Source: Okamejei kenojei (Eukaryota). From it: a stretch of 64,000 nt of DNA. The DNA is taken from positions 86,924,001-86,988,000 of the forward strand of contig CM069134.1 of NCBI GenBank assembly GCA_035221665.1, written 5' to 3'. This document shows, piece by piece, positions 1 to 61,405 of the stretch. Numbering within the stretch: position 1 is the first letter of the stretch; each line of letters opens with the position of its first letter. The translations under genes and the position numbers were made by a program. Under the pieces are notes generated by a model. That model was not told where the DNA came from and made no database searches. It saw only the letters and a program-made list of their open reading frames with translations.

Positions 1-378
1 ATAGATAAGTGACGGTCGGGTCAGGACCCTTCTTCAGACTGATTGCAGGGGTGGGGCGGGAACGAAAGCGGGAAAAGAGGAGAGGCATGAGATAGCATGG
101 CTGGTAATAGGTGAACACAGGCAAGGGGTTTTTTTAGATAAGCAGATTATTGGACAAAGTTTCACTTATTACCTATTAAATAATAATAGTAAATATTAAA
201 TGTTAACCTATTACTGGCTGTACAGCTTTTTTCCCACCCCCCTGCAATAAGTCTGAAGAAGGATCCTGACTGGAAACATCACCTATCCATGTTCTCCAGA
301 GATGCTGTCCAACATACTGAGTTACTCCTGCAATTTGTTTCTTTCTTTGGTATAAACCAACATCTGCCGTTCCTTGTT
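1..378. mobile_element. Penelope-derived terminal-repeat fold-back element, left arm cut by window edge
   Basis: Minus-strand arm GTGACGGTCGGGTCAGGACCCTTCTTCAGACT (9-40) and plus-strand arm GTCTGAAGAAGGATCCTGACTGGAAACATCACC...CATCTGCCGTTCCTTG (250-376). Same repeat as the 3' end of the GIY-YIG Penelope fragment at 34419-34547. Confidence 0.7.
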
Positions 379-384
379 ATTGCA

Positions 385-620
385 TTTGACTGTTAAAATT
401 CCTTGGTGTTTTCACTCCTCCTGCCCGTTCAAACTTGCTACAAACCCTCCAGTGATCCCAGTGCTCAGCTTTCTGGCTGATGATACTCACCTACCTTCCA
501 TCAGGTCATTAGTGGCGACTGTGACCTCAGCTGCCTGAGCACTGATTTCCTGTATCTCCTCCCCAACTCTGTGTGTCTCCCTCTCCCTGTGCTCCTGTAA
601 GTCACGCCATCAAATAAAAA
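385..620 (+). mobile_element. Old L2-like LINE 3' remnant
   Basis: Degenerate similarity to the chondrichthyan L2 3' region (TTAAAATTC...GTGGCGACTGTGACCTCAGCTGCCTGAGC...CTCCTCCCC). Related to 15480-15740 and to minus-strand copies at 3420-3725, 12590-13110 and 24830-25180. Confidence 0.4.
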
Positions 621-1064
621 CTTTAAAGAACATCATATGACTCTGGACCACAGGAGATCAAGCTTTAACCAAGCTAGTGGCAAAATCTCGTTAAGTAGTT
701 AGGTGTTAATATTTGTTAACGAGGAACTTTGGGGCCTATTACTGCAATGTACAGTAAGTTGTTGTTCATATGACATACAATGACAGCACACTCCATACAG
801 GCAAACAACACGTTGTATGTTCTTACCTTGAAATTCACCGCAAGTTTTGAATTTGCAATGGACTTTCAGACAGAAATAACGAACATGTAGACATACAGGC
901 CTAGAAATTGTGTTCTACAAGGCGAGACCTATTAAACAGGCAGTAGACAGCAGGCCAGAATACTTTTGTGCACAACCCCGAGAACATGTCCACCATGTGG
1001 AGTGTTTTCAGGCCTTTAGGTTTGCCTGGATTCAGCAAGATTCAAACTTGTCTGTGGAAAACAA

Positions 1065-1745
1065 TTGAGATGAGTATTGTGTGCATTTCTGGTTGCCTCG
1101 TTATAGGAAGGATATGGTTGAGATGGTGGGAATGCAGAGGAGATTCACCAGGATGTTACTTGGATTGGAGGACTTTGGTTGTGGAGATAGTTTGGATCGG
1201 AGGGGCTTGTTTTCCCTGGAGCACAGGAGTCTGAGGTGCGTAAGATAGAAGTGCATAAAGAGTCGATAGATAGGGTAGGGAGTCAAAATAATTTCCCCAC
1301 GATAGGAGAATCAAAATCAAGCGTAGCTTTGAGGTGATAGAAAGTAGTGCTAAAGGGGATCTGAAGGGAAAGCATTTTACACAGAGTAGTTGATATCTGG
1401 AACTCGGTAGAGGAGATGATGGAATCAGTTACAATCACTATGTTGACGTGACATTTAAACAGACAATTGAATGCGCACGGTACAGTAGGATATGGAGGCA
1501 CAGGAGACTGCAGATGCTGGAATCTTGAGCAAAAGACAAAGTGCTGGAGGAACTCAATAGGTTGGGCAGCATCTGGGGAGGGACTGGCAAGGTGGTGTTT
1601 TGGGTCGGGACCTTTTTTCAAACTGGAAAGATTTGGACCTAATGCGGGCAAATAGGATTAGTGTAAATGGGCACAAAGGTTCGATATGGATGTGGTGAAT
1701 TGAAGGGGCCGTTGCTGTGATGTGCAATCCGTGACTTTATGAGTA
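1065..1745 (+). mobile_element. Old CR1 LINE 3' fragment interrupted by a Penelope-derived repeat (about 1496-1628)
   Basis: Degenerate CR1 RT C-terminus (GCAGAGGAGATTCACCAGGATGTTAC = QRRFTRML; TTTTACACAGAGTAGTTGATATCTGGAACTC = FTQRVV.IWNS) followed by the CR1 3' UTR. Confidence 0.75.
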
Positions 1746-2852: not shown

Positions 2853-2854
<2 letters not shown>

Positions 2855-2897: not shown

Positions 2898-4796
2898 GGC
2901 GAGGATGGAGATCAGGCGTGACTTTCATTTTGGAAGTGATACCCCCACTGTGCTGACCTCGCTCCTTGTGCTATGATTGGTTCAGTGTTAAAGTTGATTT
3001 GCTGCCAATCATGTGTGAGACACATTCTGCCCTTGAATTTTTGCCCGGCTGCTTAGGGAAAGAGAACAGATGGAAATTGATTATTTTATTCTTTCTTTTG
3101 GACATGCAACATTATATAAAAATATTAGTGGAATAAAATGGTGGTTGTTGGTCCTTGAAAAGGTTGTGGCTACACGTTCCTTCAGTCTAAGTGTTCTATT
3201 AATCCAGTTTAACCTCAATGTGGGATGTTTCATTTTAAACTGAGCCAGCGCATAATGCTGCTTATTTGTACAGCAGCTATACTCTACTAAAATGCACTGC
3301 TTCTCAGATTCACCATCAGTCAGAATTTGCTTCCGAGTCACGTATTAGGACAGACAACCAAACATTAGGGCAAATGGGCAGCTTTCAATGAGTGGAAGCA
3401 GAAATAAGGAAGCAGATTGGTTTTAGGAGGGAAATCTTGGTGCTGAAGCCACTGTCACCAGTGGTGGAATAATTAAGGTGAGGGGTGATCAAGATGCCAG
3501 AATTGAGAGGAGTACAGAGATCGCAGAGGTCCGTGGAGTTTAAGGAGATTATTGAGGTAGAAGGGATCAGGACCACCGACCAAATTGTAAATAAGGCTAA
3601 AAATTATGATCTTGTTTAACAGAGAGCCAAGTAGGCAAGCAAGCACAGGGGTGATGGATGAGAGACATGCAGTGCTAATTGAGTTTACAAGTTTGCAGAG
3701 AGTAGAATGAGGAAAGGCATTGTAGAGCCCGTATTCCCCCTGGCCTACCTATGTTTACAATAGGTCGGTAATTGAATTACTGCTGGTACTACTGAATTCC
3801 TGAGAAAGGATTTCTGATATAAAAAAAGAACAGTATTCCTAATTCTGTGACAAAATACCTTTACTTGAGGTTGAGAGATTACTGTAATCTTAATGTAACT
3901 GCTGACACTGGGGTACCCTTCGCTCTCCCTCTCTACCCTTCCATTATAACTTATGATTGTCTCAGAGAGTTCAATCCACTGACAGTCCACTGAGGCGTGA
4001 CGTATGGTGACTGACTAGGTCACCTCTCCCTGACTACGGGAGCACTGGCAGCAAGAAGATCTTACCTTCAAGGTAAAAGCTCACTGCCATAAACAATTGC
4101 TCGTTTTCCCTTTGATCTAAGACTAGGTTTCACATTCTCTCCACACACCCAAACCCCGACCCCAACCTTGCCTGAGCGAGCAGACTGCACCTCCTTTTCC
4201 CACTCGTGACTGTGTCTATTTCATATTTCTGGAAGGCACTTGAATTGTTAGTGCATAGTCATCCGTTTATTAATAATGATTAATTCAGAAGAATCCAATG
4301 CATGAATGGCCTTGCTTTCTTGGGAACTCTCTGGGAATTTCAGCCCATTCTGGATGGTGAGATCTGCAGTCGTCACTAAAACCCCTTTGCCTCACTCAGA
4401 GCCTCTTGTGCATACGTGACTACGTGATGTTATGGCCACATATGTTCCTCCTTGTAGCTTGAGGCTGGAAAGATCTCTCCATGCAAGAGATGGTGGGACT
4501 GATTCTCCCAGAGAAGGAGCCTGCAACGCGTGCGATATGAGTTTGTAGCTTAACCCCCTTTTCGTGTAAACCTTGCTAAAGGAGTTGAATGCAGCACTGG
4601 GAAGTTGCTTGCAATTGCTCAGTCATTACCAAGGCAATTTAACCTAATGTTCTCTTCCAACAGTGACCAGCTGGTTGAGAGCAAACCGGTTTTGCAGAGG
4701 ATTTTGACTGCTATTTGAAAGAATATCACTTTTTAACCTGCTTAAAGCAGTTGGATATTTAAAGAGGGCAGTTGAAACAATTAGATAGGCCTTCTG

Positions 4797-4990
4797 GTGT
4801 AGGAGGAATTGCAGATGCTGGTTTAAACCGAAGATAGACACAGAGATGTAACTCAGCGGGTCAGGCCGCATCTCTGGAGAAAAGGAATAGGTGATGTTTC
4901 AGGTCTGAAGAAGGGTCTCAGCCCGAAACATCACTTATTCCTTTTCTCCAGAGATGCTGCCCGACCTGCTGAGTAACTCCTTTATCTTTG
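4797..4990. mobile_element. Penelope-derived fold-back element with hammerhead-like core
   Basis: Inverted arms flank GGT-CTGAAGA-AGGGTCTCAGCCC-GAAA-CATC-ACT (4902-4935). Confidence 0.75.
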
Positions 4991-12118: not shown

Positions 12119-13244
12119 TGTGCCATTTTACAATCAGCAGAAAAATCATAATTCTTATCATGGGAATAAAGTCTGCTGAAGGATCTGTTGCCCGAGGAAG
12201 GGCCTTGACCCTCTTTGTGATAAACCTACAAATTTAAATCTATCCCCTCTCACCTTTAACCTGTCCAGTTTTAAACTGCCCTACTCTGGAAAGTGGATTC
12301 TGGAATCTGAAGAATGGTCCCAATCTGAAATGTCGTTGGCCCATTCCCTCCACAGATGCCATCTGACCCATTTAGTTCCTTCAGCACTTTGTGTTTTGCT
12401 CAGGTTTCCAGCATCTGCAGTTTATTGTGTCTCTGTCATCATTCACATCATTCTCATTACTCAGAAAAAACTGCCAAATATCTATTTTAAAAGCCCTTTT
12501 TTAATTTTACAATTCACTGGGCAACAATAATGTATTATGTGACACATAAAACAGTAATACAAAGACAAGATATTAACATGATGAAATTCCTGAAGTGTTT
12601 CCCAAGAAGACTGTCACATAAACTGTTGTTAGCATCAAGAAACTAAAAGGAAACAATAGGTTAGATAACCAAAATGTGAATATAGCATTAGGTTTTAAAG
12701 GGTATTTTAAAAGAGAAGACACTGGTAGAAAGGTTTTGAGAGGGAGCTGGGTGTCCAGGCATTTGAAGGCACATCTAGTGGTGATCCAGTGAAAGTCAAT
12801 GTTTCTCAAACAAGCCTAGCATTGGAAGAATGCAGAGATGGGGAAGGGTTGTCGAGCATTATTAGAGGAAAGGAATAGGGCATGAAGAGATTTAAACACG
12901 AAATGTCAACATCAAAGAATTGCTGGGTTGGAAGTCACTGAATGTCACCTTCACCTGGGATGAATGATCACAACTTTGTTGGAGTGAGAATACAGGGAGC
13001 TCAAGGCAGATTTTTTAAAGATGCGAATTTACCAGGAGGGTATTGAAATAGTTAAGTGTAGAAGTAACAAAGACATGGAAGGCAAATTTACAGTTGTGAT
13101 GTAAAATGTTCTCCTTATATCAAGAGAGAGAGTGACGCCAGTTATCGGAGCAACTGCCTCGGTCCCTATCATCTACTTTGTTTTCCTGTTATCTGTTCTC
13201 TCTCAATTCCATCAGTCCCCTTGATTCTTCTTCGACCCATTTAC

Positions 13245-15747: not shown

Positions 15748-15948
15748 GTGCAGGAAGAAACTGCAGATGCTGGTTTACACGGAAGATAGACACAAAATGC
15801 TGGAGTAATTCAGCAGGTCAGGCAACATCTCTGGAGAAAATGAATAGGTGATGTTTCAGGTCAGGTCTGATGAAGGGTCTCCACTCGAAACATCACCTAT
15901 TCCTTTTTGCCTGACCTGTTGAGGTAATCCAGCATTTTGTGCCTATCT
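15748..15948. mobile_element. Penelope-derived fold-back element with 13-bp TSD
   Basis: TSD CCAATATTTCCTT at 15735-15747 and 15949-15961. Core GGT-CTGATGA-AGGGTCTCCACTC-GAAA-CATC-ACC. Confidence 0.8.
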
Positions 15949-18084: not shown

Positions 18085-19060
18085 ATGAATGGTGCTGTAT
18101 AACATCTCATCGGTTTATACTACACGCTGTCTCAAGCTCGAATACAGTTTATGTCAGGAATTGATTTGCCTGTACAGAATATGCCTAATAGAGTATTGGG
18201 ATTTCTGCACAAACTCAGCAGGTAAAAGAAGAAATTACGGGTTTGTCCCAAAAAAGGGGTAATTGAGAGGACGATAAACCATCCTCAACAATTTGTGTCC
18301 AATATATTCCCCAGACAGAGAAAAGATGGGGGATGTAGAGGCATTCTGGACCTAAACTAGTTAAATTCCTATGTTCACTATAGGCATTTTTAAAATGGAC
18401 ACCTTCAATACTGCGAAACGGCTGTTATCACAAGGCTGTTATATGGCAACTATAGGCCTCAAAGATGCATATTATTCAGTACCAATTCATCATCAGTATC
18501 GGAGATACTTGAAATTTAGTTGGATGGGACAGCTGTGGCAATTTAAAGCATTACCCAATGAGTTAACCTCAGTTCTTAGGCTATTCAAAAAATTGTGGAA
18601 ACCAGTGCTGGCACTACTTTGGGCCCAGAATCACATGGTAATGGCTTATCTAGATGATATTTTAATCATAAGCAACACTCGGCAGACAGCTGAGGAATCG
18701 GTTTCAGCAACCAAATACCTGTTTGAAATGTCAGGGTTCCTGGTCCATCCAGCCAAATCCAAGTTAGAGCCATCCTAAAAAAATGTTCATTTGGGATTGG
18801 TCATTGATTCAGTTGATATGTCAGTGACTTTGCCTACAGACAAGGCTGTGGAGATCAGAGAGCTCTGTATCTGTCTCGCTGAAAAACAATATCCCTCCAT
18901 CCGGGAAGTAGCTACTGTTATTGGTAAATTGGTGGCAGCTTTCCCTGCAGTGCAGTTTGTACCACTGCACTATCGAAGTCTGCAACGAAGTAGAGAACTA
19001 GCACTTAAAGAACATGCAGGTAATTTTGATAGACCTATGCAGTTACCAACCAGAGCCAAA
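18085..19060 (+). pseudogene. DIRS reverse transcriptase domain (frameshifts and stops)
   Basis: FKMDT...ATIGLKDAYYSVPI...WQFKALPNEL...AYLDDILII...KSKLEP; LG.VIDSV.MSVTLP.DK. Confidence 0.9.
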
Positions 19061-19099
19061 GCTCAATTACAAACTACCAAAAACATTTTGGTTCAGCAA

Positions 19100-19480
19100 C
19101 CTTCAGTGCTTTTACATACATATGTGAGTGCTGCCGGATGGGGAGCTACGGACAGCGAGTCTAGCTGTGGTGATAGTGGATTTAATCCTGGACAGGCATG
19201 GTATAAATTACTTAGAATTGCTGGGTGCATTCTATGGATTAAAAGTTTATTGTTTAGCAATGAATAATTTACATGTTCAACTCCAGATTGATAATACCAC
19301 GGCTGTGCTATATATCAATCCCATGGCAGTAATAAGGTCAGTATCATGTGATAATCTGGCTAACCTCATGTGGCACTGGTGTATTTCCAGAAACATCTGG
19401 GTCTCAGCTATCTACCTACCAGGTAGAGACAATGTGGTGGCAGACAACAGACGCGGAAGTTCAATGACAACATGGAATGG
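19100..19480 (+). pseudogene. DIRS RNase H domain (decayed)
   Basis: HTYVSAAGWGA (TDAS..GWGA), GINYLELLGA, QIDNTTAV, YLPGRDNVVAD. Confidence 0.85.
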
Positions 19481-23719: not shown

Positions 23720-24810
23720 TGCATAGGCAATAGGTGCAGGAGTAGGCCATTCAGCCCTATGAGCCAGCACCGCCATTCAATGTAAACATGGCTGATCATC
23801 CACAATCAGAACCCCATTCTTGCTTTCGCCCCATATCCCTCGATTCCGCTAGCCCTAAGAGCTCTATCTAACTCACTTTTGAATGCATCCAGTGAATTGA
23901 CTTCCACTGCATTCTGAGGCAGAGAATTCCACAAATTCACACCTCTCTGTGTGAAAATGTTTTTCCTCATTTCATTTCTAAATGGCCTACCCCTTATTCT
24001 TAAACTGTGGCTCCTGTTCTGGACTCCCTCAACATCGGGAATGTTTCCTGCATCCAGCATGTCCAATCCCTTAATAATTTTGTAATGACAGATTTTAATA
24101 TTGTTTCAAGGATTCTTTCCTTTAGTCCCTATGATTGAAGACAGGGGATCAGAAGATAACCGATACGCACTCACAAGCGCTCCATGAGACATTCAATGCC
24201 AGGTCTTCTTCCTAAAATATTAATGCTGTTTCTATCTCCACAGATGCTGCCTGACCTGTTGAGCTTTTCCAACACATTCTGTTTTTATTCAAGATTTATT
24301 AGTGTGTTAGATTCTGCTCCAATTTAAGCCCCATAATGCATCCAGTCTGTTGATTAGTAGTTTCTTTACTGTAGTAGTAAAAACAGTAAGATATTCATCC
24401 AAACTTCTTCTTGTATAAGTACATTTTAATCTTACTCGTGATCATACTCATGCATGGATGAAAGCTGTGACCTCTCCCCCATGCTTCTTCAAACTAAACT
24501 GACAACCAGGGAATCTGTGTGAGAATCCCAGCCGCAAACACGCCTCAGACTACGTATAAATCCCACCCACATAATTACAGGCATATAAAATTTAAAGGTA
24601 ACTGGTTATAGTTAGAACATACTGAGTTAAGCTAAATGGCTACTACAAATTTTATATGTTGTTATAAGTTTCCCTCTCATCCTTCTAAATTCCAGTGAAT
24701 ACAAGCCCAGTCGCTTCATTCTCTCAGCATATGACAGTCCCGCCATCCCTGGAATTAACCTTGTGAACCTACGCTGCACTCCCTCAATAGCAAGAATGTC
24801 CTTCCTCAAA
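23720..24810 (-). mobile_element. CR1 3' fragment split by a solo LTR
   Basis: ORFs 23806-24066 and 24627-24809 are collinear parts of the CR1 RT C-terminus. They rejoin as ...ATAATTT|TATATG... when 24081-24652 is removed. Confidence 0.9.
24081..24647. mobile_element. Solo LTR (TG...CA, 5-bp TSD), superfamily undetermined
   Basis: Starts TGTAAT and ends ACTACA. TSD AATTT at 24076-24080 and 24648-24652. It precisely interrupts a CR1. Confidence 0.8.
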
Positions 24811-36604: not shown

Positions 36605-37896
36605 TTAGGGATGGGGGGAGGTGGAGCAGGTGGTGCTTGGGAGAAGTACACTATGCTCTAGTACAGCAAGCTGAAATTATTTCATTTTAATTCAGAGTAC
36701 TTGGTTATCAGTAGGTTATTTAGTTATCAGTAATATTGTTACTGTTAGGTGCCATCATTAATCTATTGGAATAGGTGCCATTGTTGATCAGTTGGACTTT
36801 GATGGATTATGTGATGTGGTATTAAATAAATATGACCTGAAGTTTCATTAAAATACAGAATACGAGTTTCCCATTTACGATCATAGAATAAGGGTTTCCC
36901 TTTTTGCCATTTGTCTGCAGCACATTAAGCTTAAACATCTCCTACAATACTTAGTGATCCAACTGTGTGAATAATTCTAACAAGAGCAGTCTTAAACTTT
37001 CCTGAGCATACCTCCTTCACAACATAAGGCATTGAGTTTGAGAGTTGGGACATCATGTTGCACAGATATAAAATGTTGGTTAGGCTGCAAGCATCCCTGC
37101 ATTGTGGCTGTTTTAGTTAACAGAAATTTGGCTTTAGGATTCATAAATCACTACCCAAGAATTTGAGGTACTGAATCAAATTTGCTCATGTTACAAAAAA
37201 TAATGATGCGAGGAAAGGTGCACTATAGGAAAGATGTTTTTAAGCTCAAGAAGGTGCAGAAAAAATGGACAAAAATGTTAATGGGATTCGAGGGCTTGAT
37301 TTATCAGGAGTGGTTGAATGGGCTGGGTCTAGTTTTCCCTCGGAAGTAAAGGAGACTGAGAGGTAACATGAAAGAGGTATTAACATGCTGAGTAGGAAGG
37401 AACTGTAGATGCTCGTTTAAATCGAAGTAAGACGCAAAATGCTGGAGTAACTCAGTGGGACTGGCAGCATCTCTGGAGAGAAGGAATGGGTGATGTTTCG
37501 GGTCGAGACGTTTCGGGTCCAAAGAAGGGTCTTGACCCAAAATGACACCCATTCCTTCTTGCCAGAGATGCTGCCTATTAAAATTATGAAACAGGATAGA
37601 TAGTCAGAGTCTGTTTACCATGGTGGATGGGTGCTGAAAACTCGAGTTCCGGTTGAAGGTGAGGGAAGAGGCATAATGCGGATCTGAGGGGTAAATGTTT
37701 CACACAAATTAATTGGTATCTGCAATGAACTGCCAGAGGAGGTGGTGGAGGTAGGAACAGTAAGAACATTTAGGCCCCTTGACATGTACTTGCATCAGCA
37801 GGGCACAGAGGGATATGGAATTAATACAGGTACATGGGATTAGAATAGATGGGCATGATAGTTGCCATACACACATCGGGTTGAAGGGCTCGTTTC

Positions 37897-38500: not shown

Positions 38501-41500
38501 CAAATTCCTTCAGTGTGGATGTTTCCAAGATCATCTGGATGAAGTGATGAATTAAGGAGAGACCTGGAATTGTATTGCATTTTTTGCAACCTCAGAGCCA
38601 GTAAAGTTGTTTGGAAGTGCAAATAAGGCAGTCAATTAGTGCACAGGAAAGCTCCTATGAACAGCATTGTGTTAATAACTAAATATTCTGCTTTTCTTAA
38701 GCGATGATGGTTGAATTTCCCTGAAACTTTCACAGCATCTAATCAGACAGCAAAGAAACAGGCCCTTCAGCCTGCTGAGTCCATGCTGGCCGCAGGCACC
38801 CATTTTCATTGATCCTACTCTAATGCCAATTTTTCCTTTCGCTGTCCCCACATTGCCATAGATTGCCATCGGATCTGCATTTTCCCATGAAATGTGGTCC
38901 ACAATTTAACATCATACCTTCAAATTCTCAATCCTGCATTGAGAATGCCAACCAAGACTTTGTGCAGGCATAGCTGATGCTTCTTACAGGGCGAGTGCAG
39001 GTGCCAAGGGGAAAAGACTGGGAACCATGCCTACTGGAAGAAGCCTTAGAATGAGCCAAATTGAGTGCCTTTCCTGCACTCACTCACCCTTGCGGAGTGA
39101 AAGAGAGGGAGAGAGTGGCCTCTAATAGGAGAGGGAAAGCTCATTGCATTGGGCCTCAGGACCCAGAGACTTGGTTTCGAGGATTGACTATTTGGGTTTG
39201 CAATGGTTTTGGAGTGAGGGTCTCCCTCCCTTGCAATTAGAGGGTGACAATTGTGCTTTGGAGATCTGGTCTGAGAGAAATCATCCAGCAGGGGTAAGTT
39301 GATGAGGACCTAACCAGAACAATCCCTTTAATTATAAAAAGGCCTGCATCACAAAATTATTCAGGTAGCATCCATGCTGAATGAAAATGATAGAAGTAGT
39401 GCCCAGCTGCACAATGGTCACCCCAACTGGGTTTCACTGGTAGGTGATGGGTCAGATATGCAGCAGAACCAGAAAGGAAACTACCGATGTTCAATCCTCT
39501 CCTTAAAAAAAAAAAAAAAAAGATTTTAGTTCCAAAATCATTTGTGCATCTCACATAAATGTTGTGCCAGATGAGAGCAACTGTGTTGAACTGGCAGATT
39601 CAAGAGTATTTTACCACCTACTCATGCACTGAGGCTCAAGCAATAGAAAGTTAATGCATAACCTTGACAACACGTCCATTGTTCCGTGTATATGTCAAGT
39701 GGTACCAAGCAGTGTTTGTCTCACCTTTCATGAAATATTTATCGACATTCGATTTGCAATTTAGCCCTGCAATGTTTCTTCAGTCATTCATTGAGATCTT
39801 TGCTAATTTATGACCTAACTCAATATACTCATTTGTCTGAAGAAGGGTCCCCATTTGAAATATCATCAGTCCATTCCCTCCACAGATGCTGTCTGACCCA
39901 CTGAGTTACTTCAGCACTGTGTTTTGCTTAAGATTCCAGCATCTGCAGTTCCTTGTGTCTCCTGCGTACCCAATTGTCTTCTAATGTTGTGGCCCATCTT
40001 CCAAACCGTTGTATTCTTGATCCCTAGCTACCCAGTGAATCAGAGTTGAAAAGACTGGAGGGGACTGCACAGGAATAAAGTATTTTTTATTTTCCTGAGT
40101 AAATGCCTGTTTTACAATTAGCAGTGCTTAATGCAATGAGAAATCACAATAAAAAGCACAAATCAGTGAGTATAACAGTTGCATCTCAAAAGTATGTGGT
40201 ATTGTTTTTTTAAACAAATAAATGAAACTCCGCAAGTTAGAGGTGAAGAACTGCTCTGATAATTATTTCTTCTGTGTGCAAGTCTTCCATTTAGCAATCT
40301 CTCATTTTTGACGTTTCTTTTCCCTCTTAGAGAGAAGACGAGGAACAAGCTTTCTTGAGATCTTGCCCACTTTGTGGCCTGTCCTCCTGATGTCCTCTGC
40401 TTGCCCCTTGGTCGTGCATCACTCTTTCTGTCACATTGAACTCCAGATGCTCCTACCCCAGAGAAATGTTCCGACTCCGGCAATTCTTCTTCATTCTCAC
40501 TAACAATTTGGTAATGAAATATTGATTTTTAGTTAGATTCATATTGATGCTATTAGGTTTGCATCGATAAATCATGTTGCCCTCCTCTGTGAGCAGATAG
40601 AGAGCACTGCACTGAACCCTGGAGATTACATTCAAGTACACTGATGTGTTAATTTGATGGATCTTTCACCATTAGAGGAGTAAGAGTGTGTGTCGGGAGA
40701 CAGGGGGTAGGAGGGGGAAAGTGATAATAAGAGAGAAAGACCTTATTTCCCCCTCCTTGTTTTGCTCCTGTTTTATTTTAACAACAAAACACCTACGCTG
40801 ACAGGTTCATTGCTGAAGAGTGATGGGAAAATGCAAATAAATTAGGAGCTGCAGTAACTGATCTGCTTGAAGTGAAGACAACGTGCTCGAGACAGCAAAG
40901 GACATGGTCCTCCTCAACCGAATGTGCTCTGGACTCCTTGCATGTGTCTGTGATCTCAGGACCTGTGTGACCTTCCCTCCACCCCCCCCCCCCCTCCCCC
41001 CCTCTGTGCACCAAGGTACACACAGGAATGCAACGTCATGTCTGCATAAACACCGCAGAAAGGTGACTAGTCTTCACTGGAAAACGACCAGCATGGATGG
41101 TAGATCATAACCCTGTACCAGTGTGCAAGGTCAAGCAACGCAGGACTGTAAGAAGTGGGATCAACGGATTTGTAAACGTCAGAAGAGGACTGATTGTGAC
41201 TCTTCTTCCTTCCCTCTCCAGTCAGTGGATCAAGGAAATTTACAAATTCATTGGGAGACTTGTTCCATTGCGTCCACGTCTACAGTCAGAAGGGACAATC
41301 GAACATATGGGAAGGGAGGAATTGCACAGACACAAAGTGAACCTTTTATCCTTGAGTGCCACCTATCTGCACAACCTTGGGCCCACCAGGAGTTGGAGGC
41401 AGCAGATGGTCGGTAGGGGCTAAGTGGCGAGTGGCGAGTGGGTGGGGTTCGGGCAAGGTTGTAATATAGCCCTCAACAGGCCCACCCTACTAAAGCTCTG

Positions 41501-45942: not shown

Positions 45943-46058
45943 GTTAACGAAGAAACTGCAGATGCAGTCTGAAGAAGGGTCTCGACCCAAAACGTCGCCT
46001 ATCTCCTTCGCTCCTTAGATGCTGCTGCACCCGCTGAGTTTCTCCAGCTTTTTGTGTA
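45943..46058. mobile_element. Short Penelope-derived fold-back element with 13-bp TSD
   Basis: TSD ACCCTCAATCTGT at 45930-45942 and 46059-46071. Core GT-CTGAAGA-AGGGTCTCGACCC-AAAA-CGTC-GCC. Confidence 0.8.
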
Positions 46059-46988: not shown

Positions 46989-47195
46989 TGTGTAGGAAGA
47001 AACTGCAGATGCTGGTTTACACTGAAGATGGATATAAAATAATGGAGTAACTCAGCGGGTCAGGCAGCATCTTTGGAGAAAAGGAGTAGTTGACGGTTTG
47101 GGTCTGAAGAAAGGCTCCGACCCAAAACGTCACCTACTACTTTTCTCCGAAGATGTTGTCTCACCCGTCGAGTTACTCCAGCATTTTGTGTTTAT
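46989..47195. mobile_element. Penelope-derived fold-back element with 14-bp TSD
   Basis: TSD CTCCCCATACTTAA (46975-46988) and CTCCCTGTACTTAA (47196-47209). Confidence 0.75.
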
Positions 47196-47606
47196 CTCCC
47201 TGTACTTAAGTTTGGTCATCCCAACAATCAGTCTAATAAACATTCGATGCACTTCCACCATGGCAAGACCATCCTGTCATGGATGAGACCAAAAGTGCAG
47301 CTAAAGCTCCAGGTCGTGTCTCGCCAAGGCCTCCTACAGTTGCAGCAAGAGATTCTTGCCATTGTACTAGTGTAGCTGGGACAGACGAGTGTAGCTGGGA
47401 CATGTTGGTTGGTGTGGGCAAGTTGGGCTGTATCCACACTGTATCACTCTAATGACTCTATGACTCTACTCAAATCCTATTGTACTGAAGACCAACACAC
47501 CTTTAACCCTTCTAACTGTTTGTTCCATCTGAACTCTTGCATACAGCGGCTGCACTTTATTCTTTTATTTCAGATTCCTAGCATTTCTTACATTTTATTC
47601 ATTCAG

Positions 47607-47845: not shown

Positions 47846-49699
47846 TTATTTGCACTCACTGTTAGCACTGCAACAGACCATGGTGGATAGACTTGATGCA
47901 GTCTGTCACTCAGTAAGTCCCTTACATCCGTTCCTTCACGTTCAGTTTCAGCACCCGAATATCAAGCAAGATTTCCCCTTTATTACATAGCATGTATGGA
48001 GCAGAAATTAGTTAACTGTAACTCTCCTGCCTCATGCCGATCAATGGAAGGTACCTACTCCAAAAACAGAGTGCAGGGAATTATTGTCCTTATTCTAAAA
48101 TAAGGAAATGCATAATTCTTAAGATGTAATTTTCAATGTAATAAATTACAATAAAAGCACCTCAAATGTTCTTTTCGCATAAACCACATAACTTATAATT
48201 TATGGAGCATGAACTCTAACATTAAAAATCACAGGGGCTGAGCAGCGGCCTAGTCAAGGTAAAACATGACGGGGAAATTCTGCCAAGAGTGCTGCCTTTC
48301 AGCCAACATCTTGGTGCCCGTCATCTTCAGAGTTGCCAGCACTGTGGCACATGGACAAGGGAAAATGTTCCTGGGAGCCCTCACCTTTGACTCCACCCTT
48401 TGAAGTCTCAAAATATCATGGGCAAAGTAATCATCTGCTGAACACCACCTTCCATCCTCCCTCACCTAATGGTGAAGACAATATTTAAACAGATCCTTCA
48501 TAGTTCTCAGTAATTATGCATCCTACTGAAGAATTCCACTGATTATAGATTCTACGACAGCACAGTGACACAGCTGGCAACCCACAGAATGAGGTAAGAT
48601 CCTAACTTCGGATGCTATCTGCGTGGAGTTTGCGCGTTCTCCATGTAACCACATAGGTTTCCTCCATATGCATGGCTTTCCTTCCACATCCCCAAAGACA
48701 TGTAGATGAAGAAAAAGGATGGGTGACGTTTCGGATTGGAACCCTTTTTCAGACTGAAAGTACAGGGAAGGGGGGACTGGAGGTAGGAGGCAGTGTTTAT
48801 CACATGAAATTGTTATTCCTTCTGAAATAAGGCACTGGATTTAATAGTGGGGAATAGGGAAACAGGAGAGGTAGTAAACAAAATGTTTGTGAAGTCACAA
48901 GAGACCACAGCTGCTACAATACCTTGGGCAAAAAATGAACTGCTGGAAGAACTCAATGGATTAGGCAGTATCTGTGGAGGCAGAGAGATGTTTGATATTT
49001 TGGATCAAGACCCTGCATCAGGGTAAGTGTAGAGGAACGATAGCTAGTACAAAGAGGTGAGAGGGAGGGATGAGGTGAGGACTGGTAAATGATAGGTAGG
49101 AAAGAACTGCAGATGCTGATTCAAATTGAGGGTAGACACAAATTGCTGGAGTAACTCAGCAGGACAGGGGCATCTCTGGAGAGAAGGAATGGGTAAAGTT
49201 TAGGGTCGAGAGCCTTCTTCAGACTGATGTCAGGGGGGTGGGTGGGACAGAGATAGAATTAAGCAGGAGACTGGTGAATGATAGATGTATTCAGGTAAAT
49301 CAGTGCGAATGAGCAAATGGAGTCAGGTGGTGTTGGGGGAGGGAAGAGCTTAAAGACAGAGGTCGATGAATGATAGGTGGAAACAGACAATGAAGAAGAA
49401 GCAAAAAGGACAAATGAGACTAGGTGGGAGAAGGGAATGGCAAGGTTGAATCAGAGGATGGAAGGTGATATGTGGAACCAGAAAAGGGAAAGATTGTGGG
49501 CAGGCAGAATCAGGTGGGGGCTGGCAATGGATGTGGGGAGGGGTGCTGAAGAAAACGTTGAACAGAGGGAGTGAGAAGTAAGGTCAAGCAGTAGGAGTGG
49601 GAAAGGAGCACAGGAGGTGTGGGTGATCGAAAAATTGATAATACAATGTTCATACTGCAAATGGAATATGAGGTGTTATTCTTTTAGTTTGCGTTTGGC

Positions 49700-51390
49700 C
49701 AAAAGCATATTAAAAATAATAGCCCACTAAGGGGCAAATAAGAGTGAGGAACTTGAAACAATATCACGCTAGGAAAAAGTATTAGGTAAACTAGAAAGGC
49801 CGATAAATCCTTTGGATATTATGGTCAGCAGAAAAGGTTGCAGGAATATTGGGTGCATTGCTTGTTCTCTAAATTCACAATATGTTCCCATGGATTGGAA
49901 AGTAACAATGCTATTCAAGAAAGGAGGAGAAGGGAACCTCAGGCTAGTTGGCCTAACATCAGGTTGTCAGAAAAATCATATCTATTATTAAGGAAGTAAT
50001 AGCAGAGCACTTAGCAAAACATAAATGATTATGTAGGCCTATACATTGTAGGGTGAACATGGTTTTATGAAAGAAAAATAATTTTCAACATAAAATTCTT
50101 TGGAGATGTGGATGGTGCAGTAATGCAGTTATAATAGAGCTGTTGCCTCACAACTTCAGCTATTCCAGTTTTACACTGACCACCAGTGTTGTTTGCATGT
50201 GCAGTTTGCATGTTCTCCTTGTGCATGTTTGGATTTTTCTCTCTGTGCTCCGGTTTCATGGAACATAGAACAGTATAGCACAGGAACAGTTAATTCAGCC
50301 GATAATGTCCATTCTGAACATGATGCCAAGATAAACTACTCTCCTCTGTATGATCCATGTGTCTTTCCAAAAGCCTCTTAAATATCACTATCCTCCACAA
50401 CTCCTGGAAGCAAGTTTCAGGCACTCACCACTCTCTGTGTAAAAACTTGCTCTGCACAACTTCTGAGAACTATGAAGGACGTGTTTAAATGTTGTCCATC
50501 ACCATCAGGTGAGGGAGGATGACAGGTGGAGTTCAGTAGGAGATTACTTTGTCCATGTTTCCTTCAAATCCTAACAAAATGTGTGGGCTACATTGCACAC
50601 CAGGGTGGACGTTCTCTTCAATATACGTAGGGGTAACAGGGTAACTGTTTTCCATTGTATACATAGGGGCGACTTACAGCATAATCTGTTGTGCTGCAGC
50701 AAGTAAGAATTTCATTGTTCTATCTGGGACATATGACAATAAAACACTCTTGACTTTTGACTCTTGACTCTTAGTTGGCCACTCTAAATGTTTCCTCCTG
50801 AGTTGTGAGGGGTAGAACCTGCGGGACAGTTGATGGAAATAAGGGGATCATATAATGGGTGAAAGTAGGATTGGCATAACAATTGAGACTGCTGATGCTG
50901 GAATCTTGAGTAAAACACAAAGTGCTGGAGTAATTGAATAGTTCAGGCAGCATCTGTGGAGGGAATGGATAACATAAAAATGATTGTTTAATGGTTGGTG
51001 TAGCCTAATAAATATTTGTTGAGGTGCCACATAAAAGTTTACTACATAATATAAGAATGCAGAGGACTAGGGGTGATATATTATCATGGATACATGATTG
51101 GTTAACTGAGAAAAAAAAAAGTTTCCAGCTGGGAAATTGCTAGTGGGATGCCGCAGAGATTGGTACTGGGACCACAACCATTTACAGTATAATCTATATT
51201 AGTGATTTAGGTGATGGGCCTACGTGCAATGTATTCAAGATTGACGACATTAGAAAGGCAGATGGAAGAGAGTGAGTGGACACTAAGAATCTGTAATGGT
51301 ATAGGGACAAATTGCGTGAATGGGCAAAACGATGATATCTAGGACGTAATGAGGGGAAATGAGAAGTGAAAATGTAAGGAACCTTAGGCC
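49700..51390 (+). mobile_element. Old CR1 RT region fragmented by SINE, CR1-tail and Penelope-repeat insertions
   Basis: VP.DWK...LFKKGG (49885-49930), HKSLLHNIRM.../SWIHDWL (51030-51105) and SGMPQRLVLGP.PF (51140-51185). Confidence 0.55.
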
Positions 51391-52822
51391 AATTGAACAC
51401 CTTTCTGATGACCTGAACTGTTAACTCTATGCATCTTTCCACAAATGCTACCTGACCTGCTGAGTGGTAGCAGTGTTTTCTGTTATTATTAACTTGATCC
51501 TTCATTCCAGAACACAAATTTCATGGTGCCTTCCAAAGATACCTGCTAATTTGAATCTATTTATCCATGTATGTGCCATAGATGGGCAGGTCTCAGTACT
51601 TTTGTTCCATTACAGTATTCAGACCTTTTGTTGCACGATTTTAAAGGAGTCACATTGACTGATGGTGGTGAGTGATTATTAAAAAAGGTTCTTGTTCAAA
51701 TCACTGGTGTATGTAATTTGAAGCTCTTAATCTCTATTTCTCAATCCAAATGTAATTAACTTGTGAACTCCTGGGAATGTCAAGAGCTTCCATTACATCG
51801 AGTTGAAATAGAATAGCCTCTTTGAGTCTTACTTTGCAAGAATATGTTTACAGAAACATAAGCCTTCACATGATAGAGCCACACCTTGTAGGTGAAGACA
51901 AAATTAACATTTGGTACGGTGATATTCGTTACTACACAACCAAACACATCAACAGGAAAACATCCAAATGGTGATCCTCGAGGGACAAACATAATTTTGA
52001 ATTTTCATTCAAAGGACTGTCAGCGAACTCAAGCTCGCATGAGCATGACTGCGAGGACCAGTGACCTAGAGACCTGGAGTGTGGGTCCTGAGGTGTGAAT
52101 TCAAGTCGCAGAACGGCTAGGGAATTTAAATTCAATTAAGTAAGATTGGAATGAGATAGCTAGCTCACCTACATTTAATTAAAGGTGACCACAATGCTAC
52201 TGGGTTGTCTTAGAAAACCCTCCGGTTCAGTGTAGATCTTTAGGGAAAATAATCTATCATCTCACTTCCACTCTGATCTCACTGTCTGTGGCTTCATGCA
52301 CCGTTACAACAGCTTAAGGAACAGCAGCATCTCATCCTTCTGGGCATGATGGACTACTTTGGGCTCTTTTGGTCTTGATACAGAACTTGCCAACATTATT
52401 ACAACACATCTTTTCTGTCAGTATCAGTTGGTTAGTTGGCTTAGTTGGTTCATTCTTATTATCATGTGTTCTGAGGTACAGTGAAATACTTTTTTGTTGC
52501 GTGCTTTCCAGTTAGCGAAAAGACCACACATGATTACAGTCAAGTTGTCCATAGTGTCCTGAAAAATTTAAAAGAATGGAGCAATTATAATGAACAATAG
52601 CAGATACCCTTCTAGGTCCAGCAGTCAAAGAGTCGCCATCTTGGAATGAGCTCCAAGCTTTATCGTTGGTCAAGGACATGACAAATGCCTATCCTTCAAA
52701 AACATCAACATTGCCCATTTCTGCCAGTCATCCATCTGAGATTGTAGTTCAGTTTTTCTCTCTCTCTGTGAGTATAGCCTGACCTGCTGAGGAGGCCCTG
52801 CAGCACTGACAATAGCCACATA

Positions 52823-54453
52823 CAGTGGCTTGCAAAAGTAATCATACCCCTTGAACTTTTCCACATTTTGTCAATTTACAACCACAAACGTAAATGTTTT
52901 TTATTGGGATTTTATGTGATAGACCAACACAAAGTGGTGCATAATTGTGAAGTGGAAGGAAAATGATACATGGTTTCCAAATTTTATTACAAATAAAAAA
53001 CTGAAAAGTGTGGTGTGCAAAAGTATTTAGCCCCCCTGAGTCAATACTTTGTAGAACCACCTTTCGCTGCAATTACAGCTGCATGTCTTTTGGGGTATGT
53101 CTCTACCAGCTTTGCACATCTAGAGACTGAAATTTTTACCCATTCTTCTTTTCAAAATAGCTCAAAGCTCAGTCAGATTGGATGGAGAGTGTCTGTGAAC
53201 AGCAATTTTCAAGTCTTGCCAGAGATTCTCAATTGGATTTAGGTCTGGACTTTGACTGGGCATTCTATTCTAACACATGAATATGCTTTGATCTAAACCA
53301 TTCCATTGTAGCTCTGGCTGTATGTTTAGGGTTGTTGTCCTGCTGGAAGGTGAACCTCCGCCCCAGTCTCGTCTTTTTCAGACTTTAACAGGTTTTCTTC
53401 CAAGATTGCCCTGTATGTGGCTCCATCCATCTTCCCATCAACTCTGACCAGCTTCCCTGACCCTGCTGAAGAAAAGCATCCCCACAGCATGATGCTGCCA
53501 CCTTGATGTTTCACAGTGGGTATGGTGTGTTCAGGGTGATGTGCAGTGTTAGTTTTCCACCACACATAGCGTTTTGCATTTATGCCAAAAACTTCAATTT
53601 TGGTCTCATCAGACCAGAGCACCTTCCTCCACATGTTTGCTGTGTCCCCCACATGGCTTGTGGCAAACTGCAAACGGGACTTCTTAAGGCTTTGTTTCAA
53701 CAATGGCTTTCTTCTTGCCACTCTTCCATAAAGGCCCGATTTGTGGAGTGCACGACTAATAGTTGTCCTGTGGACAGAATCTCCCACCTGAGCTGTGGAT
53801 CTCTGCAGCTCCTCCAGAGTTACCACGGGTCTCTTGGCTGCTTCTCTGATCAATGCTCTCCTTGGCCGGCCTGTCAGTTTAGATGGACGGCCATGTCTTG
53901 GTAGCTTTGCAGTTGTGCCATACTCTTTCCATTTTCGGATGATGGATTGAACAGTGCTCCGTGAGATGTTCAAGGCTTGGGATATTTTTTAATAACCTAA
54001 CCCTGCTTTAAACTTCTCCACAACATTATCCATGACCTGTCTGGTGTGTTCCTTGGGCTTCATGATGCCCAAGGAACATTGTTTGGTCACTAATGTTCTC
54101 TAACAAACCTCTGAGGCCTTCACAGAACAGCTGTATTTATACTGAGATTAGACTATACACAAGTGGACTCTATTTACTAATTAGGTGACTTCTGAAGGCA
54201 ATTGTTTGCACTGGATATTATTTAGGGGTATCAGAGTAAAGGGGGCTGAATACTTTTGCACGCCACACTTTTCAGTTTTTTATTTGTAAAAAGATTTGAA
54301 AACCATGTATCATTTTCCTCCCACTTCACAATTATGCGCCACTTTGTGTTGGTCTATCACATAAAATCCTAATAAAATACATTTACGTGTGTGGTTGTAA
54401 CGTGACAAAATGTGGAAAAGTTCAAGGGGTATGAATACTTTTGCAAGCCACTG
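52823..54453 (-). mobile_element. Tc1 (IR/DR, DD34E) DNA transposon, full length and nearly intact
   Basis: TA|CAGTGGCTTGCAAAAGTA...TACTTTTGCAAGCCACTG|TA, about 215-bp TIRs with the inner direct repeat TGCAAAAGTATT, 1631 bp in total. Confidence 0.97.
53041..54063 (-). pseudogene. Tc1 transposase of about 340 aa with an early stop and frameshifts
   Basis: MKPKEHTRQV...[17 protein letters not shown]; [10 protein letters not shown]; WSDETK; [14 protein letters not shown]; QQDNNPKH; SPDLNPIE; AVIAAKGGSTKY*. Confidence 0.95.
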
Positions 54454-54884
54454 TATACCCCAGACAAAGAAGCAGTTACCCCTTAACTGCCCTCCATTAA
54501 CGTATTTAACCTGGTGTTAGCCCTTTCACAGATGTTTCCTTTGTCACATTCGTTCTTCCCATCAACCTTTCTAAAATATAAAATTAACTATTATATTCTA
54601 CAATATGATGTTAACTTTTCAAGTTCAAGTTCGTTATATTTATTGTCACATGCTCCAATTGGTACAGTGAGATTTGAGTTACCATACAGCCATATAAATA
54701 AATAAATAAACAATACACAATAGAGATTTTTTTCTCCCTTTTCCAGTCTGTGCACAAACTTGTGCTGAAGGTTCTAGGACTTGAAAATGTAACTCTTTCC
54801 TCTTTCTACAGATGCTGCCTGAAATACTGAACATTTCCAGCCTCTTCAATTTTTATTTCAGATTTCCAGCCACTGCATTTTACA

Positions 54885-57409: not shown

Positions 57410-59069
57410 CATTTCTTTGGTTGAAAATGAAAATCCCCAATTCTCATTTCTGATGCAGTGTCGCATTTCTGAAGATTTAACTTTTTCTCTTTCCGCAGAT
57501 TCTGCTTAATCTGTTGAGTGTTTCTGGTTTTACTTCTGATATCCATATGCTTCTGTTACTCATTCACAGATTACAGCCATGCTCTCAGCACCAGGCCTTA
57601 TTGACCACCCATAAAAGCCCCTTAAACGAGGCTGATGGATCTGGAGTCATGTGCAGGCTAGACCTGGGCAGGATGGCAGATTCCCTCAAGGATATTACCG
57701 AGTGAAATGGGTCGTTTTTTTTTAAACCATTTTAATCAGTTAATTACAATTACCAAACCTTTTGTTTTACATTCACAATTTAGTCAATTTAAAATTCATC
57801 AGCTGTTGTGATGGGATAATTGAGATCACGCTTCTGGATCAGTGGTCCGGAATTCTGGCTGCTGGTCCAATAAAGTTACCACTGTACTATATCCGTGCAT
57901 GTGTGTATCATCAATCGATTTACTACTTGGGCTGACTAATGAAAACTGCTCAAAATTGACCACTTTGTGTGACTGAAATACAAAGATTTATTTTTAAGTT
58001 AGATGCAAAGTACTCTTTCACTGGTTTATTTTATGGCAAATGGAGCCACGGTTGAAATGCTCAGGCCACTCAAAATCTGCACTGAAGTTCTGATTGAGGC
58101 AATCTTTCTCTAACCAGAGGAGGCTGTTTCTCTTCATGTCCAACTGAGTAATGACTTGGCATCAAAATCTTCTGTAGCTCACTCACAGGATTTTTTTTAC
58201 TGGACTGTGACACCATTGGGTTTATTTTGATGGAAGGTAATAAAGAAAAAGCAACTACAAGCACTTTTAAAGCAGATTATTTTTTTCAAACTTAAAATGA
58301 TATTTTCCTGTATAAGGAAATCCACAAAATGTGCCCAGAAACCTTTTTGACCTGCTCCACAGCTCAAAAAATATTTTTTTCTTCCCAGCCCGTAATCTTC
58401 TCTTTATTCTGTGGCAGATATTAGTTTGGAAATTGAGAGTGACTATTTATAATTATCAGACAGGGTAGCATAATGCATTAGCATTGACTCATTGAGCATC
58501 AATTTCTGAGTTATATCTCTGCCAACCAAAATCCAACCCATAATGTGACGTTCCCATGCCAAATCTGATCTTCAACATTCAAGATAGCCATGGCAACAAA
58601 GTCAATGGGTTTGAAAGCACTCCTTGGTGTCAGAGTGAGAACAGCAGAGGATCTTCTAAGTGTGCTCTTCAGAGACTTCGGAAGCCTCTTGTTCTTAGTT
58701 GTGGAAAAAAAAGAGCTTGCATTTATAACCACAGGGCTTTATAAATCACTTTACAGCCAAACAGCATGTCCCAAAATACTTTTAATATGTACTCGCTGTT
58801 GCAAAATATAGCAGTCAGTTTATGCACAGCAAGTTTTATAAGATGCAACGTAACAATGTCCTGGACCATTATAAATCTCTTATCCAATATTGTTACAAAG
58901 CAGGTGATCTGGTGGATTTGCACGCTGTTTCAGAGTCCTTGTAGTGTGTAAATTGGTTCTTGTTTCTCCAGCTTTGTCACAATGTCTAAAATATTTAACT
59001 GGCTACAAAATGCTTTTGGACTAAATACTGTACATCCCAAACAATTTTTCTGATTTTAATCTATATTAT

Positions 59070-59200
59070 TCATGGCATCTGAGGGTCAGGATGCTGGGGC
59101 AAACTCCCGTGCTGTTCTTCAAAGGATGTCACGGGATATTTTATCTGTCAGAGAGCAGGAGGGCCCTTATTTAATGCCTCCTCTGAAAGAATCATCATAT
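59070..59200 (-). mobile_element. Deu-domain SINE relic
   Basis: CAGGATGCTGGGGCAAACTCCCGTGCTGTTCTTCAAAGGATGTCACGGGATATTTTA is the reverse complement of the Deu core. Another minus-strand relic lies at about 38570-38720. Confidence 0.55.
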
Positions 59201-59454
59201 CCACAGATAACGTTTTTCATGATTTATTCTTCAATGAAACGATTAATTGATTTTCTGTTACATTCTTGCACCAATGTAACATTACACCCAAGGAAAACAC
59301 TCCAATGTTTCTACCCCCCTCTCCACCCCCACCCCCCCCCCCAGATTGAGCTTGAATTCTGAGCATTTTCAGATTAGCTATCAGTTGTCCAAGAGATATA
59401 TTTTGGTATCAATTTGCCTACTGCTGTTATCTTCTCCCATTGGACCTTACACAC

Positions 59455-61405
59455 AGGACACAGAACATAGAATAGGACAGCAGAAGAACAGGCCCTTCGC
59501 ATAAGGGCTGTCCTGAACATGATGCGACATTAAACTAATCCCATCTTCCTGCAACTGATCCATATCCCTCCATGCCTTGCATGGTCACGTGCCTGTCATT
59601 TTCATTTCTTTTTCCACCAACACCCCTGGCAGCACATTCCAGGAAACTATCAAGCCTGCACATCTCCTTTAAACGTTGCCCCTCTCACTTTAAAGCTGTG
59701 ACCTCTGATATTTGACATTTCCACACTGGGAGAAAGATTCTAACTTTCTATCCTATTATGCCGCCCATAACTTTATAAACTTGTGCCAGATCTTCCCTTG
59801 GCCTCTGATGCTCCAGCGCAAATAATCCAAGTCCGTCCGTCGTCTCCGTTCACTAATATTCTCCAATCCAGACAACATCTTGTTGAGTCTGAAGAAGGGT
59901 CTCAACTCGAAACGTCACCCATTCCTTCCCTCCAGAGATGCTGCCTGTCTTGCTGAGTTACTCCAGCATTTTGTGTCTATCTTTGATGTGAACATCTTAT
60001 TGAACCTCTTTTGCCTCCAAATCTTTCATATCAAACAGTGATCAGAACTGCAAACAACACTTCAAATGTGACCTGACTAAGTTTTATAAAACTGTGACAT
60101 GTTTTCTTGGCTATTACATTCAGAGCCTCAACAGTAAAGGCAAGCATGCCATATGCCTTCTTTACCACACTGTCAATTTATGTTGCCACAAGATTATCTT
60201 TACACATCAATGTTCCAAAGGGTCCTGCCATTTACTGTAAACTTTGCCCTTGCATTTGACTTCCAAGGCACAACACCTCACACTTGTCCAGATTAAATTC
60301 CATTTGCCATTTCTCAAACTGATATATATGGTTGCAAAATATAGCAGTCAATTTGGTTCAATGGTTCTATGGTGCTTTTTATTGTCACATGTGCAAATGC
60401 ACCATGTAATTAATTTCTTACATACACCACAGTATGTTACACACATTTTCTTACAGTCCAGTAAAGTATCGCCATACCTAATCACATCCTGATTAGTAAA
60501 ATATACAGAAATAGTCGACTGAGCTTGCATGAAAGACCTGCCAAAGTTGGCGTCATTTTCCAACTCTAGTCCACGCTCTAGTTCTTATGAGGGTGCCTGA
60601 TCCAGACAAGCCCCATGTTGCTCTAGGCCTCCAGTCATCACCCGACCAGTGAACCGATGTCCTCTCCTCGCTCATCCTCTTTTGTGCCTCACAGCGCCTC
60701 CCACAGCTGACTTTGAGGGTACTGTAGGCAAGTCCCCGTTCCCTCTCCTACTTAACCCTTGCCCGTCACATCCGTCGTCATCACTGGCTCCGTCCTCCTG
60801 GTCTCTGGTCTTCAGGGGATGAGCAGGGGCCGGCTCCACGCTTCCCCCCTTCAGGGCCCTACAAGAAGGGGCCGCATCCTTTGACAGCTGTCTTCACTAA
60901 TCACAACTCCATCAACTTTTGTGTTGTCTGTAAACGTAATGATCAGCCCATTTTACATTTTTGTTCAAATTATTTACATTTATCACAAACAGCAGAGGTT
61001 CCTGCACTGATCCCATTAATCGCAAACCTCCAATTAGAAAAACACCATCCACCTCTACTCTTTGTCTTCTATAGCCAAGCCAATTCTGAATCCAATCTAC
61101 CAACTCACCATGGTTTCCATGTGTCTTAATCATTTGGATCACCCTAACAGGAGGAACCTTGTCAAATGCCTTACTAAAGTACACATAGACAACACCACTG
61201 CCCTACCCTCATCAATCATCTGCATTACCTCCTAATGATTGACTCCTCATTCAAGTCCGTAAGATATGTCCTGCCCTGCAAAAGGTCATGCTGACTATCC
61301 TTAATAAGCCCAAGCATTACCAAATACAAGTAAATCCTATCCCTATGAATCCTCACCAGTAGCTTCCATACCAGTGATGTAAAGCTCACTGATCTATAAT
61401 TTCCA
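59455..61405 (-). mobile_element. Old CR1 (RT to 3' UTR), interrupted by a Penelope arm (59887-59991) and a SINE-like insertion (about 60348-60880)
   Basis: YFSKAFDKVP...WIQNWL..RRQRV (ORF 60912-61184) and a CR1 3' UTR at 59455-59640. The Penelope arm has the TSD AACATCTT(G/A)TTGA. Confidence 0.75.

Follow-up and report, generated by a model that had tools for sequence, protein, structure and literature searches.

What kind of mobile element has scattered short hammerhead ribozyme motifs, many of them in fold-back arrangement, over a stretch of the genome of the cartilaginous fish Okamejei kenojei? The stretch analysed here as a whole, hereafter the window, comprises 64,000 nt of contig CM069134.1 (positions 86,924,001 to 86,988,000). 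This animal DNA is rich in repeats and has a GC content of about 42%, with reverse transcriptase fragments of LINEs (long interspersed nuclear elements) as well as pieces of Tc1 transposase. The original prediction, made from the letters of the window, described a retrozyme-like, Penelope-derived family of non-coding elements that carry a ribozyme and are mobilised as units. The results below make a different answer quite probable, namely that the repeats are the 3' ends (a pseudo-long terminal repeat, pseudo-LTR, with an optional tail) of coding Penelope-like retroelements (PLEs), likely of the Neptune type, inserted as dead-on-arrival cDNAs.

The motif and its coding carrier

Strict and fuzzy patterns of the hammerhead core were run on the window and on 20 dinucleotide shuffles. 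The strict pattern matched three times in the window and never in the shuffles; the fuzzy pattern matched 14 times, against a shuffle mean of 0.25. Patterns, BLAST and reading together gave 21 core-bearing copies of the form CTGANGA-A-GGGT-loop-ACCC-GAAA-CG-TC, which include every copy listed in the original prediction and agree with its estimate of a dozen or more dispersed elements. The alignment consists of these 21 copies and six core-less inverted arms. More decayed relatives near 24235, 25461, 26244, 50960, 51434, 54800 and 62977 were excluded from the counts. Older, more diverged pseudo-LTR relatives with an altered core-like sequence lie at 54765-54880, 26195-26300 and 51400-51490.

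One copy is attached to coding sequence. An open frame at 34051-34314 (plus strand) codes for the C-terminal portion of a GIY-YIG endonuclease of PLE type, recognised by protein identity (tblastn 34054-34311) and truncated at its 5' end at about 34058. It is followed on the same strand by the pyrimidine-rich PLE 3' region that forms the upstream part of the pseudo-LTR (34320-34418; the tract directly upstream of the core is 93% pyrimidine), and then by a hammerhead motif and long tail (34420-34551) in which CTGANGA has a 1-nt deletion. The endonuclease fragment shares 74% identity with the best of its relatives, a protein labelled Leucoraja erinacea, and has 982 representative relatives at E<=0.001; Pfam alone gave no match to it. 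The proteins closest to one of its relatives are labelled sharks and rays. Among 11 longer relatives scanned, four hold both RVT_1 and GIY-YIG, and reverse transcriptase (RT) is present in relatives P0018, P0049 and P0146. The motif adjoins an endonuclease most closely related to elasmobranch RT-GIY-YIG proteins and is therefore the pseudo-LTR of protein-coding PLEs; the Penelope derivation put forward in the original prediction is right.

Other copies extend this picture. The solo copy at 36144-36275 (plus strand), which starts at the core, bears the long tail and belongs to the subfamily of the endonuclease-bearing copy, is 87% identical to positions 34420-34551 by BLAST; solo and coding copies therefore share subfamilies. 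A longer PLE 3' piece on the minus strand (49097-49700) comprises a weak second endonuclease remnant (49699-49655, iE 0.041) 430 nt upstream of the core, a pyrimidine tract, the core at 49222 and a long tail. One of 271 fetched proteins, a PLE read-through protein of Stegostoma, ends in SLMKGLRPKR after the endonuclease, in the frame of the core. No full-length PLE or RT part was found in the window.

The type of PLE is suggested by a zinc linker between RT and endonuclease, CX2-5CXXC, that marks Neptune and Nematis (PMC8557442). The linker occurs in seven of the eight top relatives holding the domain (six labelled elasmobranch, and P0006) and in 22 of 45 wider relatives, and its region is missing from the window copy. 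By this comparison of relatives, a source PLE of Neptune type is likely.

An ATG about 50 nt past the start of the core was considered as the start of the element's open reading frame (ORF) but is not taken as an established start. The frame from this ATG stays open through the tail in the copy at 36146 and in two older copies; a stop closes it in three arms that belong to the commonest subfamily, and no N-terminus among the 271 fetched proteins matches it. As a separate observation, record P0023, a G-protein-coupled receptor, ends in a piece of the PLE endonuclease described above (67% identity) that is either an exonised or a mis-predicted insertion.

Structure and decay of the hammerhead

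Numbered as a type I hammerhead, the motif consists of C3-A9, an extra A that follows A9 in all 21 copies, a 4-bp stem II, GAAA, CG, UC and a 2-bp stem I (GU/AC), the U-A pair of which is changed to U-G in four of 20 copies. This matches the minimal hammerhead consensus of PLEs (CUGANGA-H, G10.1-C11.1 stem II, GAAA, palindromic 15.2-16.2, NUH), and the proposal of a type I minimal PLE hammerhead, with an extra base after A9 and a CG palindrome for a dimeric stem III, fits the consensus in PMC4209133. With the minimal hammerheads of metazoan PLEs presented there the window copies share CUGANGA, the extra base after A9, G10.1-C11.1, GAAA, the CG palindrome and a UC/UU cut site. They differ in the 4 bp of stem II and in stem I, which has mostly 3-6 bp in the published alignment, although 2 bp are found in Culex and several Drosophila; the searched part of the supplement holds no shark or ray entry. 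Minimal hammerheads are weak, acting in vitro only as multimers, and single motifs have been spread by truncated PLEs in fish, coelacanth and frog (PMC4209133).

The best copy is a solo copy at 59887-59990 (plus strand) with a short 3' end and a 13-bp duplication (59874/59991). Its C3 at 59889, GAAA at 59909-59912 and GTC at 59914-59916 lie exactly where they had been placed, and the cut is predicted after 59916. All 12 scored catalytic positions are kept in six of the 21 copies, and this is the one copy that combines a full core, four of four stem II pairs and the stem III CG. The copy at 39837 has TA in place of CG, and three G-U pairs. CpG decay, rightly seen in the original prediction, has turned G12 into A in 10 of the 21 copies and left the CG of stem III intact in only seven of 20. 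Over the damaged copy at 34420, the majority letters of reads from four public runs restore an intact core, and the source of the family therefore had one.

Rfam covariance models at E<=10 produced 13 matches, all of them hairpin-type chance matches and none to a hammerhead family. In 20 copies, stem pairing was 88.3% against 87.7% in shuffles and stem covariation 0.259 against 0.261, with one-sided changes; this test has little power because the copies are decayed and come from few subfamilies. Both checks had been named in the original prediction, from which the Rfam null, the 2-bp stem I and the copy attached to a PLE endonuclease are absent. The expected excess of conservation in the core over its flanks was seen in direction, with 189 of 206 non-CpG catalytic cells conserved (92%) against 862 of 1080 flank cells (80%), but it is biased because the copies were chosen by their core. 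Folded as a monomer, the best copy adopts no hammerhead fold and is about as stable as its shuffles (z -0.84). The predicted probability of stem II is near zero in six of seven fold-backs and also in three of four solo copies, so this measure does not separate the two. By contrast, the predicted probability that GAAA is unpaired is 0-0.47 in fold-backs and 0.74-1.0 in solo copies; the inverted arm is thus predicted to bury GAAA, which would make a fold-back a poor carrier of the ribozyme. One poly(A) RNA run, which cannot test cleavage, showed no pile of read ends over the pseudo-LTR. Function of the hammerhead is probably confined to the master RNA, where it would act as a dimer or with the help of protein; the ribozyme is likely not needed for making the short copies, which retain sequence 5' of the cut site. 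In PAc, the Poseidon element of Anolis carolinensis, hammerhead mutants still insert in vitro and RNA-seq ends are absent from the cut site (PMC11167929).

Ends, target duplications and fold-backs

The copies have two kinds of 3' end, one near TTTTGTGTCT and the other about 35-45 nt beyond. In each of the four runs, loose read ends accumulate at 34504-34514 and 34550, with AT-rich sequence past them. PLE insertions carry an optional tail of 30-40 bp (PMC8557442, PMC3846280), and in PAc the tail is bounded by two internal sites at which RT starts (PMC11167929). The segment between the two 3' ends matches this and is the PLE tail.

At the 5' side, 14 of the 21 copies start at most about 8 nt from C3, and the upstream pyrimidine sequence is kept in the other seven (by eye). 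Hammerhead cleavage as the cause of these ends was ruled out, as the 30 nt that precede the cut are present in the copies. In each of the four runs, loose ends have TCAGTCTGAAG in common and lose agreement farther upstream; the read data thus agree with a boundary at the core, the depth step at 34426 being confounded by the 1-nt deletion of the reference and by the variable tract. The options for the 5' start are run-off where the RNA begins, a halt in front of the C-rich tract, or use of a splice acceptor. Just before the core stands TCAGT, which we take to resemble an initiator. Penelope itself has an internal initiator-type promoter (PMC2377424), and in D. virilis a pyrimidine tract and CAG, a combination that also precedes the core here, form a splice acceptor before the hammerhead core (PMC4209133); among the joints listed here, none was spliced. 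In the poly(A) RNA run, reads over the pseudo-LTR came about equally from both strands and were about 8-fold deeper than over the endonuclease, a coverage consistent with passive transcription. Read contigs contain only isolated head-to-tail joints of the motif.

A solo copy with a damaged core and long tail (33046-33170, minus strand) has the same 5' junction as that at 59887 and a different 3' end; either a hot spot for insertion into the target or transduction of the flank could account for this. The two copies, of one subfamily, have in common 38 nt of LINE-like sequence upstream (33171-33208, minus strand, and 59849-59886; 87% alike).

A blind scan found duplications of 13-15 bp, scoring at least 9, at six of 19 elements and at one of 297 random intervals, and the three 13-bp duplications cited in the original prediction (15735/15949, 45930/46059 and 59874/59991) proved exact. 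Eight copies have a head-to-head inverted arm, and in each of them it is the arm without a core that bears the long tail (by eye). The junction GTTTCGG|GTCTGA recurs: six fold-backs have a near-identical junction GG|TCTGA within the hammerhead region, with details that vary between copies, and fold-backs are found in two distinct subfamilies. For six of the eight fold-backs the distance between arms was compared over 720 permutations. Within a locus it was 0.152 and between loci 0.215, a result reached by one permutation in 720; with CpG columns masked the values were 0.139 and 0.185 (three in 720). Left arms do not cluster (0.20), and locus-specific variants are common to both arms, five at 34545-34755 and four at 46989-47200. 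Because arms pair by locus, fold-backs likely arise at each insertion instead of being moved as a unit. Inverted pseudo-LTRs with a tail, duplications and self-priming have been described for PLE insertions (PMC3846280).

A mechanism that would yield such structures can be outlined. Short cDNA copies would be inserted singly by the RT and GIY-YIG endonuclease of the element itself, the endonuclease making staggered nicks in the target. Reverse transcription would be primed internally on the RNA, at a distance of about 100 or about 135 nt past the ribozyme start, as it is for PAc in vitro, and would mostly halt at the core or just upstream of it. For a fold-back, GAC at the end of the cDNA may pair with GTC of the complement of the 3' strand of stem II, either within the same cDNA or across to a second cDNA that the opposite target strand had primed; this pairing would yield the junction GTTTCGG|GTCTGA and leave the long tail on the core-less arm. 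Genomic copies would then decay through CpG mutation. I also consider, tentatively and as a somewhat unlikely refinement, that the PLE RNA starts three bases ahead of the core, at the initiator-like TCAGT, so that internal priming about 100-135 nt downstream gives a run-off, 'strong-stop' cDNA that is directly inserted.

The fold-back with core 34635 (34043-34755, minus strand; 14-bp duplication 34030/34756) holds the endonuclease-bearing copy nested in its short 3' end, with an 8-bp duplication, ACACAAAA, around the nested copy. Such nesting in a PLE fold-back fits PLE endonucleases cutting pseudo-LTR sequence. Further fold-backs on the plus strand are those with core 2498 (2374-2586; inverted arm with long tail, 14-bp duplication 2358/2593), core 4905 (4796-4980), core 15867 (15748-15948; its 13-bp duplication is given above), the damaged core 37519 (37391-37577) and core 47104 (46989-47194; 15-bp duplication with two mismatches, 46974/47195). 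The plus-strand copy with core 45969 (45943-46058; also with a 13-bp duplication listed above) includes 23 nt of the long tail in inverted orientation. A minus-strand fold-back of an older subfamily (core 2657, 2607-2778, read by eye) is flanked by shared target sequence at 2594/2779. The same target sequence of 14-16 bp stands at 2358, 2593 and 2779 around these neighbouring fold-backs, which belong to different subfamilies, as though two insertions had hit a single site. At 1-379 a minus copy (core 37, cut by the window edge) and a plus copy (core 253, long tail) form a head-to-head pair in which both keep the upstream pyrimidine sequence. The remaining copies comprise three solo copies of older subfamilies (1502-1624, minus strand; 12305-12426, plus strand; 39835-39960, plus strand, with a possible 13-bp duplication bearing two mismatches), two decayed solo copies (35695-35770, plus strand; 48900-49024, minus strand, core 49021) and a short one with core 48752 (48706-48760, minus strand).

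The window also contains long inverted repeats spaced 1.0-1.2 kb apart. Those at 24205-24344 and 25353-25492 (99% identity) have an old pseudo-LTR relative in each arm and lack an ORF of more than 120 aa; those at 52820-53042 and 54234-54456 (93%) and at 30918-31016 and 32232-32330 (87%) flank Tc1-type transposase pieces. An RT fragment (RVT_1) at 18365-19267 has a downstream frame that differs from LINE copies, and by its resemblance it may be a DIRS-type element.

Competing origins and relation to known elements

Several points weigh against an origin of the repeats as 3' ends of coding PLEs. With no full-length element or RT part in the window, the link to RT runs only through relatives, and the Neptune assignment rests on a linker of these relatives that is also found in Nematis. 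The 14 starts near the core are sharper than random truncation gives and could mean a dedicated short RNA. RNA reads over the pseudo-LTR are in about 8-fold excess over the endonuclease (other subfamilies adding to the depth of the pseudo-LTR only). For the fold-backs, the own partner is nearest in only four of six arms, and in two of six with CpG masked, and gene conversion between palindrome arms could also produce pairing by locus.

A dedicated non-coding RNA of about 135 nt, transcribed from solo pseudo-LTRs with a start at TCAGT and copied in trans by PLE protein, would make the repeats a non-autonomous family similar to short interspersed nuclear elements (SINEs). The starts at most about 8 nt from C3, the loose ends common at TCAGTCTGAAG and diverging upstream, the internal promoter of Penelope (PMC2377424) and the fact that pseudo-LTRs can mobilise in trans (PMC3846280) all speak for such an RNA, which I nevertheless consider improbable: the 87% likeness of the 34420 and 36146 copies means that solo and coding copies share subfamilies, upstream pyrimidine sequence is retained in a third of the copies (7/21), the depth step at 34426 is confounded, and the RNA reads, equal on both strands, have no start pile, although a poly(A) library would miss a short RNA. 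That the fold-backs are a palindromic, non-autonomous ribozyme element moving as one unit, as the original prediction had it, is very unlikely. The near-identity of six junctions and the clean duplications at several fold-backs speak in its favour; yet the motif belongs to a coding element, arms pair by locus across several subfamilies and share variants specific to the locus, junction details vary, the two subfamilies with fold-backs are distinct, the arm is predicted to bury GAAA, and an inverted pseudo-LTR with a tail is a described structure of PLE insertions (PMC8557442, PMC3846280).

Least credible of all, and hardly to be entertained, is that the repeats are classical non-LTR retrozymes. 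By definition, such retrozymes consist of tandem repeats, have one hammerhead per unit and give circular RNA (PMC7229834, bioRxiv 2026.07.22.740005); animal non-LTR retrozymes share with the window copies a type I core and long duplications (PMC7229834) as well as PLE ancestry, derive from pseudo-LTRs and occur in one chondrichthyan sampled (bioRxiv 2026.07.22.740005). However, retrozymes form tandem arrays with mostly canonical hammerheads, whereas the window copies are dispersed, single or fold-back, with a minimal motif and a 2-bp stem I; they retain what lies 5' of the cut site, the window contains no tandem array of the motif, and head-to-tail joints in the contigs are isolated. The retrozyme-like label of the original prediction is therefore dropped. 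Most PLE insertions, for their part, retain a single terminal repeat (bioRxiv 2026.07.22.740005).

The repeats are thus most likely insertions, truncated or folded back, of a PLE that is likely of Neptune type, and not a new kind of mobile RNA. Like known insertions of endonuclease-bearing PLEs of the Neptune clade, they show a GIY-YIG endonuclease followed by a hammerhead pseudo-LTR, heavy 5' truncation and, in relatives of the window endonuclease, the CX2-5CXXC linker; the head-to-head inverted 5'-truncated copy, the tail at one end and the target duplications are also common to both. The window copies differ in that nearly all are trimmed to 100-135 nt and begin sharply at the core on their 5' side, in duplications of 13-15 bp against 8-10 bp in rotifer PLE examples (PMC3846280), and in that the window contains no full-length copy, which would be a partial tandem of pseudo-LTR, ORF and pseudo-LTR. 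The resemblance extends to PAc, which likewise has two 3' end points that bound the tail about 100-135 nt past the hammerhead, AT-rich flanks and no RNA ends at the cut site; PAc belongs to the Poseidon clade and has its start codon at stem II (PMC11167929), whereas the window copies have their only ATG about 50 nt beyond the start of the core, closed by a stop in one subfamily.

Hammerhead-bearing pseudo-LTRs scattered as truncated copies have already been described in fish, coelacanth, frog and reptiles. To these the window adds an example from a cartilaginous fish, likely of Neptune type; the literature searched and the searched supplement showed none, Repbase and Dfam not being covered. 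If the strong-stop idea were true, the element's own 5' end would be a mass-produced, SINE-like repeat, several-fold more abundant than coding copies in elasmobranch genomes, and the fixed 5' start together with the GAC/GTC junction would record on a genome scale how PLEs finish insertion. The sharp 5' start at the core is the one point worth a genome-wide look. Short copies in their thousands, with ends that are fixed and a fold-back junction that recurs, would allow genomes alone to test how PLE insertions are completed, by self-priming or twin priming, and what role the tail has, beyond the in vitro work on PAc.

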